From Macrostomum lignano (lineage: Eukaryota): a DNA stretch of 64,000 bases. The stretch covers positions 248,001 to 312,000 of the forward strand of contig NIVC01000869.1 of assembly GCA_002269645.1 (NCBI GenBank), written 5' to 3'. Both the position numbers and the translations under genes were made by a program. Shown here one piece after another: positions 40,051-62,705 of this stretch. The notes under the pieces are model-generated. The model saw nothing but the letters and a program-made list of their open reading frames with translations, was not told where the DNA came from and did no database searches. Numbering within the stretch: position 1 is the stretch's first letter; each line of letters opens with the position of its first letter.

Positions 40051-40517
40051 AGTAGAAGGCATGAGGGGGCTTCTGGGACAAAATTTTTCACCTCCTCCAT
40101 AATCCACCTAAATCCATTCATATTATCCCTGACAGAATCAGAAAAAAAGGGGGGTCGCACTCGCTCACAAAACGTCCTCCATAATCCACCTAAATCCATC
40201 CATATTATCCCTGACAGAATCATGAAAAAGGGGAGGGGCCGCACTTGCTCTGAAAACTTCGAACATAATCCTATTAAATCCATCCATATTATCCCCGACA
40301 GAATCAGACAGTGGACACCTGTTATGCTCACTGACACTGACATCATCCACCAACATCCACCCATAGCATCTTCGAAACAATCAGAAAAAAAATCTGCATT
40401 CTTCTCCCCATGGGGCCCACATTCAATCCGAAGCGGCGAAACCAGATCCCTAAAACTTTAAATCCCCTAACCCAGGGTCCTTACCCTTTGAAAAAAAAAT
40501 TAAATTTTCTCTAAAAA

Positions 40518-40760
40518 ATGTTTCCAGTTGTCTCTCCAGGTTCTTATTATACTCAGCCTAATCCATTGTACAAATCCAAGTACCAATGCAAACTTGAATG
40601 CAGCGAGTACATGAGAAAATATTGGCCCAACGTTGATATCAATGTCCCTAATATTAATCTAGCTCTCCAAAGACACTGGTTTCATAAGTATGGAGTAACC
40701 TACGTAAAAGATTACGACAGCTACTATAACTTTGCAGAAATCATTAAGCAATTGCGTTAA
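40518..40760 (+). CDS. 80-aa Tyr-rich ORF in the left TIR
   Basis: AAAAAATG start context like other element genes and a non-repetitive sequence. An identical copy lies at 61996-62238. Confidence 0.5.
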   Translation: MFPVVSPGSYYTQPNPLYKSKYQCKLECSEYMRKYWPNVDINVPNINLALQRHWFHKYGVTYVKDYDSYYNFAEIIKQLR

Positions 40761-41132
40761 AAACTGAAAGGCCAAAAGGCCAAAAGGCCAAAAGGCCAAA
40801 AGGCCAAAAAGGCCAAAAGGCCAAAAGGCCAAAAAGGCCAAAAGGCCAAAAGGCCAAAACCCTTTTCATTTTGGCCTTGCGCGAGGCCGAAATCGTTTGC
40901 ATTCTGGCCTTCCCTCGAGACGGAATTCTTCCTCGGCTGGGCTCAGTTAAAGTGAAAATCTCTCTCCCCCACGCGCGCTGCGCCCACATACATACACTCC
41001 CCTCTCCCCCACACACGCGACGCCCGCGCCCACAACCTGTCAGAATGGGGTAAGAGATTTTGAGTACACATGCGCGCATTTTTTCATACCACTCTATTCT
41101 CTGCAAGCATACTTAAAAGGGAACGCATTTTC

Positions 41133-41665
41133 TCACATTCTCTCAATGATCAACGTCAGTACAAACTCTTCACCGTTGAAATCAACACCCACCCCATCTT
41201 CAGTCTCAAACTGTAGCACAATCTCGTGAATCTCCTTATTACTCAATACAACTCTTTTCACTGGATTTGCTTTCTCTACCACCATCTGTCCTCCAGCAAC
41301 AGAGTTGGAGATGTTGTACAAAATATTAGTTCGCTTTCCCTTAAATACCCAATCAAGACTGAGATTGCTTCTGATTAGAATATTCAAACCCTTTACAATG
41401 TCTGCAATATTGGGTGCTAAGAACAAACCGCTTACGTTTTCCCGGACCATTGTAACAGTCCCCGATGCTTGAGTGGCGGTCCGCGCCGCGGATTCTGCCT
41501 TATAAACTTTCTTCTCGAATCCCAGTTCCCTATACCAAGTGTCATCTTTAAACTCAACCTCCGCATCTTTGTGAACTTGCATGACCACTCTCATTACAGT
41601 GAGATCATAGGTTAGTTTGACAGGGAACAGTTTCTTCTCTGGCTTACTCGCATCAGGTGTCTCGA
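41133..41665 (-). pseudogene. Duplicated 3' part of the minor capsid gene inside the left TIR
   Basis: The 153-aa ORF is identical to the C-terminus of 60760-61623. The 5' part is absent. Confidence 0.9.
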
Positions 41666-41811
41666 AATATAAGCCGAAACATTAAATTCTGCATTATCTA
41701 ATAATAAATCAGCACATGGACAAACTCATCTAAATTAAACATCAGCAAAGCTGGTTTGAAGTTTGTGTCTGTCACTTTTTATTTAGAAGAATGAGTAAAT
41801 AGCATATCATA

Positions 41812-42110
41812 ATTAATAAATTGATAATTGATTACCAATGGGCAGATGTGCAACCGACAGCTCAGCCGCAGCTATTGCGCAGCTCATCTGAAGGCTGCTA
41901 TGGCTGTTCAGTCCAAGGACTGGGGGGTCGCCATACACACACCCTCAATTACTCCAGCTAATGCTGGTACCCATTTTACAGCTGGGTGAACTGAAGCAAT
42001 GCGGAGTAAAGTTCCTTGCTCAAGGACACAAATTGTTGCAGTGGGATCGGGAATCGAACCCCCGACCTTCAAGTCGTGAGTCCGACGCCCTAACCACTAG
42101 GCTACAACCT
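41812..42110 (-). mobile_element. tRNA-derived SINE with CORE-like central segment
   Basis: A box TAGCCTAGTGG, B box GGTTCGATTCC, then GTGTCCTTGAGCAAGGAACTTTA...CACCCAGCTGTAAAATGGGTACC, and an AT-rich tail. Confidence 0.65.
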
Positions 42111-60543: not shown

Positions 60544-60551
60544 TCTTCAAT

Positions 60552-60739
60552 ATGGAACTCTATATCCGATGTTTGGCGCTGATGTGTCTGCCAGACAAAT
60601 GCCTACTGATAACAGCCCTGTGAATATCGTGACTAACATTGAGAGGACTGCCGCAACACCCGTGGACTTGTACATTATCTATGCATTTGAGAGGAAGGTG
60701 AAGCTTAACATGATAAACAATTCATCCAGTAAAGTTTAA
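60552..60739 (+). pseudogene. Major capsid protein, 3' part
   Basis: LQ|YGTLYPMFGADVS...IYAFERKV continues the MCP after the TSD. Confidence 0.85.
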
Positions 60740-60759
60740 ATATTTTTTTAGGACAAAAA

Positions 60760-61623
60760 ATGGAAGCTATAGCCGAAAGACTAAACAACATTGTTTCACA
60801 CTCTAAGGAGAGCATTCCTATTACAATAACTGGGCGAATTAATGACTCAAACGGGATATTTGTTGAAAAATTAGAGCAGGCGATTCGCCTGGATCCTGGC
60901 GCTAATTACCATGTCTATCTTAACGACTTCACTGGTTGGTCAAACGTTCCCAATGTGATGGCAGCAAATAATAAGTTTTATTACAAATGGAAAGGTGCAG
61001 CAGCAGACCCTGTGGTATTCCATGTGAGCACGCAAAGTGTGGATACCTACAATAACTTTCTAGAAAATGTCTTTACTAAGAGAGGCCATTTTGAGACACC
61101 TGATGCGAGTAAGCCAGAGAAGAAACTGTTCCCTGTCAAACTAACCTATGATCTCACTGTAATGAGAGTGGTCATGCAAGTTCACAAAGATGCGGAGGTT
61201 GAGTTTAAAGATGATACTTGGTATAGGGAACTGGGATTCGAGAAGAAAGTTTATAAGGCAGAATCCGCGGCGCGGACCGCCACTCAAGCATCGGGGACTG
61301 TTACAATGGTCCGGGAAAACGTAAGCGGTTTGTTCTTAGCACCCAATATTGCAGACATTGTAAAGGGTTTGAATATTCTAATCAGAAGTAATCTCAGTCT
61401 TGATTGGGTATTTAAGGGAAAGCGAACTAATATTTTGTACAACATCTCCAACTCTGTTGCTGGAGGACAGATGGTGGTAGAGAAAGCAAATCCAGTGAAA
61501 AGAGTTGTATTGAGTAATAAGGAGATTCACGAGATTGTGCTACAGTTTGAGACTGAAGATGGGGTGGGTGTTGATTTCAACGGTGAAGAGTTTGTACTGA
61601 CGTTGATCATTGAGAGAATGTGA
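60760..61623 (+). CDS. Minor capsid protein (penton, single jelly-roll)
   Basis: LDPGANYHVYL..FTGWSNVPNV...NNKFYY; NILYNI..VAGGQMVVE; VDFNGEEFVLTLII. Confidence 0.88.
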   Translation: MEAIAERLNNIVSHSKESIPITITGRINDSNGIFVEKLEQAIRLDPGANYHVYLNDFTGWSNVPNVMAANNKFYYKWKGAAADPVVFHVSTQSVDTYNNFLENVFTKRGHFETPDASKPEKKLFPVKLTYDLTVMRVVMQVHKDAEVEFKDDTWYRELGFEKKVYKAESAARTATQASGTVTMVRENVSGLFLAPNIADIVKGLNILIRSNLSLDWVFKGKRTNILYNISNSVAGGQMVVEKANPVKRVVLSNKEIHEIVLQFETEDGVGVDFNGEEFVLTLIIERM

Positions 61624-62705
61624 GAAAATGCGTTCCCTTTTAAGTATGCTTGCAGAGAATAGAGTGGTATGAAAAAATGCGCGCATGTGTACTCAAAATC
61701 TCTTACCCCATTCTGACAGGTTGTGGGCGCGGGCGTCGCGTGTGTGGGGGAGAGGGGAGTGTATGTATGTGGGCGCAGCGCGCGTGGGGGAGAGAGATTT
61801 TCACTTTAACTGAGCCCAGCCGAGGAAGAATTCCGTCTCGAGGGAAGGCCAGAATGCAAACGATTTCGGCCTCGCGCAAGGCCAAAATGAAAAGGGTTTT
61901 GGCCTTTTGGCCTTTTGGCCTTTTTGGCCTTTTGGCCTTTTGGCCTTTTTGGCCTTTTGGCCTTTTGGCCTTTTGGCCTTTTGGCCTTTCAGTTTTTAAC
62001 GCAATTGCTTAATGATTTCTGCAAAGTTATAGTAGCTGTCGTAATCTTTTACGTAGGTTACTCCATACTTATGAAACCAGTGTCTTTGGAGAGCTAGATT
62101 AATATTAGGGACATTGATATCAACGTTGGGCCAATATTTTCTCATGTACTCGCTGCATTCAAGTTTGCATTGGTACTTGGATTTGTACAATGGATTAGGC
62201 TGAGTATAATAAGAACCTGGAGAGACAACTGGAAACATTTTTTAGAGAAAATTTAATTTTTTTTTCAAAGGGTAAGGACCCTGGGTTAGGGGATTTAAAG
62301 TTTTAGGGATCTGGTTTCGCCGCTTCGGATTGAATGTGGGCCCCATGGGGAGAAGAATGCAGATTTTTTTTCTGATTGTTTCGAAGATGCTATGGGTGGA
62401 TGTTGGTGGATGATGTCAGTGTCAGTGAGCATAACAGGTGTCCACTGTCTGATTCTGTCGGGGATAATATGGATGGATTTAATAGGATTATGTTCGAAGT
62501 TTTCAGAGCAAGTGCGGCCCCTCCCCTTTTTCATGATTCTGTCAGGGATAATATGGATGGATTTAGGTGGATTATGGAGGACGTTTTGTGAGCGAGTGCG
62601 ACCCCCCTTTTTTTCTGATTCTGTCAGGGATAATATGAATGGATTTAGGTGGATTATGGAGGAGGTGAAAAATTTTGTCCCAGAAGCCCCCTCATGCCTT
62701 CTACT
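61088..62705. repeat. Right TIR (~1.6 kb), overlapping the mCP 3' half
   Basis: Reverse complement of 40051-41668. Confidence 0.95.
61996..62238 (-). CDS. 80-aa ORF in the right TIR (copy of 40518-40760)
   Basis: Identical translation. Confidence 0.5.
   Translation of the reverse strand: MFPVVSPGSYYTQPNPLYKSKYQCKLECSEYMRKYWPNVDINVPNINLALQRHWFHKYGVTYVKDYDSYYNFAEIIKQLR

Follow-up and report, generated by a model that had tools for sequence, protein, structure and literature searches.

A young Polinton in Macrostomum lignano with a nested P-type transposon and a left terminal arm likely copied from the right end

The window analyzed here is a 64,000-nucleotide stretch of Macrostomum lignano DNA (assembly GCA_002269645.1, contig NIVC01000869.1, positions 248,001 to 312,000). 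At positions 40051-62705 it holds an element that is, by the features tested, a Polinton/Maverick, with terminal inverted repeats (TIRs) bearing an end motif, a 6-bp duplication, an integrase, a protein-primed family B polymerase (pPolB), a packaging ATPase and a minor capsid gene. Its structure as a whole is probably best explained by a young insertion into a long interspersed nuclear element (LINE), gene breaks that are mostly assembly errors, a capsid gene split by a P-type transposon, and copying of the right end of the element over its left end. Taken alone, the copy is a young Polinton of an ordinary kind that carries a nested transposon and, likely, assembly errors; of more interest beyond the single locus are the variable, apparently end-copied arms of its family.

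Results

A Polinton insertion in a LINE

A 751-bp probe from the ATPase gene, run against the organism's own genome, gave 292 candidates, and the 40 that were scored are 98-100% identical; the window's own insertion junction was found once among these 40. We compared 78 stretches, comprising 74 from approximately 40 Polinton places, three LINE sites and one sibling of the nested P element. From the 39 other ATPase matches 22 were taken by rank, with 6 added by other matches and 11 added places, such that close relatives and copies with extended arms are over-represented in the sample. A neighboring, rearranged copy (L013) was excluded from all copy counts; also left out were alignments under the length cut-off of each analysis and, in the comparison of arm alleles, right-end genes with less than 90% identity.

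The host LINE runs on the minus strand. Its portion left of the insertion (38445-40050) is 99.2-99.4% identical to three uninterrupted LINE copies and includes an RNase H frame (38547-39602, minus strand; Pfam RNase_H, E 1.4e-14), while the portion to the right (62712-64000) is 98.7-99.0% identical to the same three copies and continues their sequence exactly. CCCTTC stands at both ends of the element (40045-40050 and 62706-62711, plus strand). All three uninterrupted LINEs carry this hexamer once and lead directly into the sequence of the right flank, which shows that a Polinton did integrate into a LINE here and that the 6-bp duplication is genuine. The perfect CCCTTC duplication of the original prediction, which was made from the letters of the stretch, is thereby borne out, and the three LINEs supply the empty site that it had asked for.

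Without the nested transposon the element is approximately 17.5 kb long. Its arms start AGTAG, and the terminal hexamer AGTAGA is a variant of the AGT-type Maverick ends described in PMC8097293. Among the 15 other copies ("sisters") in which both ends are readable, 13 have a 6-bp duplication of their own. The flanks of L001/L021 and L006/L026 form no duplication, and one flank of each matches the flank of another copy, as in mis-joins or recombinants. The nearest relative of the window copy shifts from block to block, implying that the copies are mosaics. Three pairs of stretches (L047/L048, L050/L051 and L053/L054) are chimeric, with a left half near the window copy and a penton gene from a sub-family of approximately 76% identity.

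The arms are as old as the interior

The left arm (40051-41668) and the right arm (61088-62705, minus strand) are each 1,618 bp long, and their base-by-base alignment has 3 substitutions (41367, 41541 and 41664) and no insertions or deletions (indels), in agreement with the indel-free repeats of about 1.6 kb first described. Mirrored coordinates sum to 102756, as had been noted for pairs of open reading frames (ORFs); the accompanying claim that all mirrored translations are identical was slightly overstated, because one of the three substitutions alters a residue in the mirrored penton frame.

The original prediction had also set clean ends against a decayed interior. In the interior we count 12 private substitutions in 13,006 bp (0.092%), a rate that predicts 2.99 differences between the arms, where 3 are observed. 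For substitutions, then, the arms have diverged as much as the interior; they are of the same age, arm identity is not anomalous, and the paradox of clean arms beside broken genes dissolves. Indel-free arms were found in four sisters too, and the two highest counts of polymerase indels (18 and 23) belong to members of these four.

Origin of the long left arm

The long arm is a composite of three parts. The first (40051-40754, plus strand) is the family-wide TIR of about 0.7 kb, which starts AGTAG and contains 84-bp repeats; most sisters have in common with the window copy just this first 0.7 kb of the arm, at 84-90% identity. The second (40755-41128, plus strand) is a 374-bp segment with a AAAAGGCC array, which is absent from the left arm in all six of the closest structural sisters, stands at the right end in other copies, and was likely imported from the right end. 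The third (41129-41668, minus strand) is an inverted copy of the final 540 bp of the penton gene region, and the same piece with the same border lies at the left end of 6 sisters at other loci. In the four sisters in which both ends were read, the left penton fragment is 90%, 73%, 73% and 83% identical to the right end (the last over a longer match), and is thus not homogenized with it.

Of three left-diagnostic sites in the left fragment of the window copy, two have the right-arm allele and only the innermost, 5 bases from the fragment's inner border, keeps the left allele. Moreover, the allele at 61486 is common to both window arms and occurs in none of 35 other stretches. Right-type alleles at the left end, together with a private allele shared by both arms, suggest that the left end was likely overwritten from the right end, in keeping with the homogenized ends proposed originally.

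We propose the following order of events. The left end of a parent element would have held a 540-bp penton fragment of older date. Pairing of the parent's two ends through the TIR and this fragment would have followed, most likely while a single-stranded intermediate of replication was folded into a panhandle. The right end would then have rewritten the left end to just short of the fragment's inner border, adding the 374-bp segment, after which the element would have integrated and the P transposon would have entered the capsid gene. Finally, a 4.8-kb stretch of the interior (see below) would have been assembled with residual one-base errors, near-identical copies being hard to correct.

Two points weigh against this scheme: the panhandle step comes from adenovirus work and the Polinton replication model rather than from the data, and copying in place on the chromosome would be expected to yield the same alleles. 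The latter is the basis of the main alternative, in which long-tract gene conversion between the inverted arms rewrote the left arm once the element was in the chromosome, with no free replicating form. Gene conversion predicts the allele pattern equally, and the block-by-block mosaic structure of the copies implies that ectopic exchange is common. However, extended layouts are inherited across loci (the left arm of L062, L069 and L070, and the 540-bp fragment in 6 copies), such that at least some extensions precede transposition, and the arm divergence equals the interior age, as expected if the arms were equalized at about the time of insertion. We therefore regard conversion in place as unlikely.

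A second alternative, which we consider very improbable, is that the long identical arms are an assembly artefact in which right-end reads replaced the left end's own sequence in the consensus. The family is indeed hard to assemble, with 2 of 10 sisters having non-matching flanks that match the flanks of other copies, and the exact left arm was found in no sister compared. Yet the arms differ at 3 sites, where the left alleles are all seen in other copies and one is left-diagnostic; both flanks are the correct, different halves of the LINE; and arms extended to different borders are found at further loci, with one of these borders present at three places.

Extended arms elsewhere in the family

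The long arm of the window copy has parallels among the sisters, whose arms span approximately 0.4 to 6.2 kb and include extensions with other borders of 874, 979, 1,125 and 6,228 bp. The 1,125-bp left arm was found at three places (L061/L062, L069 and L070), where it runs 70 bp into the penton region and then into the same 1-kb cassette; two of these places are in the same orientation, approximately 14.6 kb apart. Several accessory cassettes, unrelated and 0.8-2.4 kb long, stand beside the TIRs in L004, L006, L010, L023, L034, L038 and L078; some contain ORFs of 110-350 amino acids. No exchange of accessory cassettes between ends was seen among the 7 cassettes tested.

The longest arms belong to a 15.5-kb derivative (L059:1248-L060:6716, that is G000:C2140, approximately 107248-122716), whose 6,228-bp arms are 99.9% identical and each hold the penton gene and a DIRS-like retroelement with a reverse transcriptase and a tyrosine recombinase. 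It has a perfect 6-bp duplication between different flanks, and no match to the polymerase, integrase or protease was found in it. Unless it was rearranged in place, this derivative likely integrated with borrowed enzymes, and mobilization in trans is thus supported for a copy other than that in the window.

Frame breaks in the polymerase and protease genes

Against approximately 25 sisters, the polymerase gene (45619-49472, plus strand), whose frame is broken in the assembly, has seven frame-changing differences, near 46.55, 46.6, 46.7, 47.55, 47.65, 48.15 and 48.35 kb. The adenain-like protease gene has one, near 49.8 kb, and four more, which the original prediction had missed, lie near 45.3 and 45.4 kb in a pX-like gene and, as a pair, near 50.05 kb. 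The breaks expected in the polymerase are thus present, but the earlier figure of about six was low; the single frameshift in adenain was correct. From the polymerase indel count we excluded a length-variable repeat at 47.0-47.1 kb, and a difference at 49.95 kb was set aside because its presence in 13 of 21 copies makes it not private.

These differences are strongly clustered. The 4.8-kb segment at 45.27-50.06 kb holds 11 one-base differences and a single private substitution, whereas these numbers are reversed in the remainder of the core, with 11 private substitutions to 1 short indel (Fisher p 1e-4 for the segment versus the rest; clustering p 1e-4), and the LINE flanks, compared with the three uninterrupted copies, have 0 indels and 17 substitutions. 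Each polymerase break is found in 0-4 of 25 sisters, the carriers mostly changing from break to break, and any one sister has at most two of the seven. The sisters' own polymerase frames contain 220 short indels in 113.5 kb (48 stretches), divided into 193 losses and 27 gains, with at least one such indel in all 27 stretches of more than 2 kb; singleton losses are moderately enriched in runs of at least three identical bases (52%, versus a background of 32%). Artefactual stops and frameshifts have been described in assemblies of near-identical endogenous viruses (PMC10120064).

Among 332 polymerase substitution alleles, 57% are synonymous (27% expected if neutral) and just 1 is a true stop (12.9 expected), a codon pattern that shows strong purifying selection on the polymerase across the family. 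Genuine decay would be expected to bring stop codons as well as frameshifts. An apparent stop allele in six copies near 48.3 kb proved to be a counting artefact, arising from two changes in one codon. Introns and programmed frameshifting were rejected as the cause of the polymerase breaks, since the breaks are not shared by most sisters or by the short-read contigs, which show a one-base difference from the window copy at these places.

On these comparisons we judge it quite probable that most of the window copy's breaks are errors, although some in the polymerase and protease may be inherited. The original prediction had offered two explanations, long-read error in a near-intact virus or movement of a defective element in trans, and the error branch best fits the polymerase and protease breaks, given the clustering of 11 versus 1 and the scarcity of stops.

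Several observations weigh against this assignment. The closer two copies are, the more one-base losses they have in common (Spearman -0.33; 300 pairs, which are not independent), and at 7 of 14 recurrent loss sites the carriers are more alike than expected by chance (p<0.05). The nearest relative over 45.5-47 kb has two neighboring breaks in common with the window copy, 12 of 27 sisters have the same one-base loss near 48.1 kb (a defective lineage or a systematic error), and in 5 of 25 sisters the protease frame stops as far along as it does in the window copy. Such shared losses could be explained by inheritance, or by read correction against a pile of near-identical reads. In addition, the absence of arm indels is improbable at the rate of the segment (p 0.0006; p 0.05 at the element-wide rate), so that an error origin requires errors to be patchy. 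Short-read contigs, by contrast, speak for errors, since all their depth gives the other form at four polymerase breaks (run X13) and at two of those (X5); the contigs, however, merge hundreds of copies and also lack the private substitution at 50263 that served as a control, and therefore cannot clear the window copy.

If the breaks were real, the window copy would belong to a polymerase-dead lineage whose replication and integration depended on a helper Polinton acting in trans, and the helper would also have homogenized its ends. Breaks common to locally similar copies point in this direction, and the polymerase-less and integrase-less L059/L060 derivative, with its perfect duplication, indicates that movement in trans likely happens. 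For the window copy itself, however, the same defects were not found at several loci, as they would be in a trans-amplified lineage: two of the seven breaks are the most in any sister, and the P insertion is in none of 29. Furthermore, indels outnumber private substitutions 11:1 in the segment, the polymerase is under strong selection with almost no stops, and the integrase, ATPase and penton frames are open. We consider trans-mobilization of the window copy, as the prediction had put it, distinctly unlikely, and continue to favor assembly error for most of the breaks.

A P-type transposon splits the putative major capsid gene

The 5' part of the putative major capsid gene (54284-55382, plus strand) is separated from its stranded 3' part (60552-60739, plus strand) by a 5,161-bp DNA transposon of the P superfamily (55383-60543, plus strand). 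This transposon has perfect terminal repeats of 14 bp, is flanked by an 8-bp duplication and encodes THAP and transposase domains; in sisters, the capsid gene is continuous across the site. Members of this superfamily are characterized by THAP domains, a TNP-like transposase, CAC...GTG ends and an 8-bp duplication. The nested element matches them in its THAP, TNP-like RNase H and GTP-binding domains (PF21787 above the Pfam cut-off, THAP and PF21788 just below), in its CAC...GTG ends and in its duplication, and is unusual solely by its seat in a Polinton capsid gene. Neither of its junctions was found in any of the 29 sister stretches spanning the site. Its sole close sibling in the assembly (L055) is 98-99% identical and has its own, different 8-bp duplication. 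Relative to this sibling, the nested element has a one-base break near 57.4 kb, and introns may account for the frame gaps near 56.8-57.1 and 58.8 kb.

The capsid break is real, and an assembler would not be expected to create an 8-bp duplication. That the P element landed after the Polinton had integrated is the simplest order. The capsid gene is thus broken, as first noted, but by a transposon rather than a frameshift. The description of the locus as a possible near-intact endogenous virus does not hold either: whereas all core ORFs of an intact, potentially active Maverick in the sense of PMC8097293 are uninterrupted, here the major capsid gene is split.

The major capsid assignment comes from a match of the 5' part to PF21738, a double jelly-roll (DJR)-like family, that is below cut-off (E 0.0015), as is the match in a sister's gene (E 6e-5); the position before the penton gene fits. 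The penton gene (60760-61623, plus strand) has an open frame whose 3' part lies inside the right arm. Its structural model has a predicted local distance difference test (pLDDT) score of 76 and is most similar in fold to the mavirus penton (6G41, E 4e-9), followed by adenovirus and Sputnik pentons, and on this model the gene encodes a single jelly-roll minor capsid protein with a fold like those of mavirus and adenovirus pentons.

Other genes and features

Inward of the left arm lies a high-copy short repeat (41837-42110), carried by the sub-lineage of the window copy, that we label, from its behavior, as resembling a short interspersed nuclear element (SINE): it has a depth spike and loose ends, is in 6 of 7 related left ends tested, and had no tRNA match and no Rfam match. 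It is followed by an accessory ORF (42392-43147, minus strand) with long matches at approximately 9 other places, no Pfam match, and a best Atlas score of 0.77, which is a lead only, none reaching 0.9. A parvovirus-type phospholipase A2 (PLA2)-like ORF (43477-43986, minus strand; PF08398, E 2.8e-13, above cut-off) has no Rfam-detectable intron, and its frame contains two GGNCC sites. The integrase (44008-45003, plus strand; rve, PF00665, E 4.4e-10, above cut-off) has an open frame, and the adenovirus pX-like core protein gene (45017-45480, 3' end approximate, plus strand; PF05829, E 3e-7, above cut-off) has two one-base breaks.

The polymerase was assigned by three catalytic motifs, at 48199, 48663 and 48960, by patterns that we take to be the conserved ones, and by homologues of 1,100-1,400 amino acids that bear PF03175 (best E 2e-90). 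Its N-terminal frame had no Pfam match, the OTU domain that Alpha adintoviruses have at this end of the polymerase included, although no profile or fold search dedicated to OTU was made, and its C-terminal frame had 0 matches among PDB sequences. The protease gene (49545-49950, 3' end approximate, plus strand) matches PF00770 below cut-off in a truncated frame (E 0.004). Two ORFs without assigned function (49926-50711 and 50777-51598, minus strand; no Pfam match) precede the A32-type packaging ATPase, which has an open frame (51612-52433, minus strand; PF04665, E 3e-6, above cut-off), and two more follow it (52624-53094 and 53030-54256, minus strand; no Pfam match above cut-off). An Rfam scan of 39500-63500 found no family.

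Elsewhere in the window, identical 253-bp direct repeats (16113-16365 and 20236-20488) flank a GC-rich stretch of 4 kb, possibly a young long terminal repeat (LTR) element, and more inverted-repeat pairs with arms of 45-64 bp lie at 24851-25414 and 30166-31713, possibly small DNA transposons.

Discussion

The window copy resembles known Polintons and Mavericks in its TIRs, 6-bp duplication, AGT-type end, integrase, pPolB, ATPase and minor capsid gene, in its candidate protease and major capsid genes and in its length of approximately 17.5 kb. In PMC8097293, intact vertebrate Mavericks are described with a mean length of 16.9 +/- 1.7 kb, TIRs of 46-1,447 bp, and a median of 8 elements and a maximum of 38 intact ones per genome. 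By contrast, the arms in the window (1,618 bp) and in one sister (6,228 bp) exceed that range and include coding sequence, and approximately 290 young candidates stand against the median of 8 and maximum of 38. The element is like Alpha adintoviruses (PMC8502044) in its pfam03175-type polymerase, penton, PLA2-like gene, pX-like domain and putative adenain and hexon, but those viruses have one PLA2X gene, in which pX is C-terminal to the PLA2 domain, whereas here PLA2 (43477-43986, minus strand) and pX (45017 onward, plus strand) are separate. Polinton-type insertions have been reported in flatworms (10.1101/2025.04.19.649669), and in nematodes Polinton TIRs drive rearrangements, by a different process (PMC11414722). 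A literature search, with subscription papers, the founding 2006 paper and supplements outside its scope, found no description of Polinton TIRs being extended by end copying.

Linear viral genomes offer closer parallels. Adenovirus inverted terminal repeats are repaired through panhandles and poxviruses have terminal duplications, and in both cases one end of the linear DNA is the source from which its counterpart is rewritten. The arms described here are alike in that an inverted repeat is lengthened into coding sequence, but they are known from fixed chromosomal insertions alone. The step at which Polinton ends are replicated or repaired has, to our knowledge, been modelled and not observed.

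A nested transposon, a recent insertion and probable assembly errors account for most of what the single locus shows, and counts of "defective" Polintons in long-read assemblies can accordingly be inflated. For the family, we put at about even chances a more general proposal: that Polinton TIRs are not fixed, that in replication the opposite end is overwritten, time and again, from the capsid-side end, such that arms of 0.4-6.2 kb capture the penton gene and a nested retroelement, and that derivatives lacking polymerase and integrase still integrate. If this is true, the copies together would document, in nature, how an endogenous virus of an animal repairs its ends on a panhandle template. 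With hundreds of near-identical copies, purifying selection, and a more than tenfold range of arm lengths for which a direction of copying can be read, it offers a handle on how Polinton ends are replicated and repaired.

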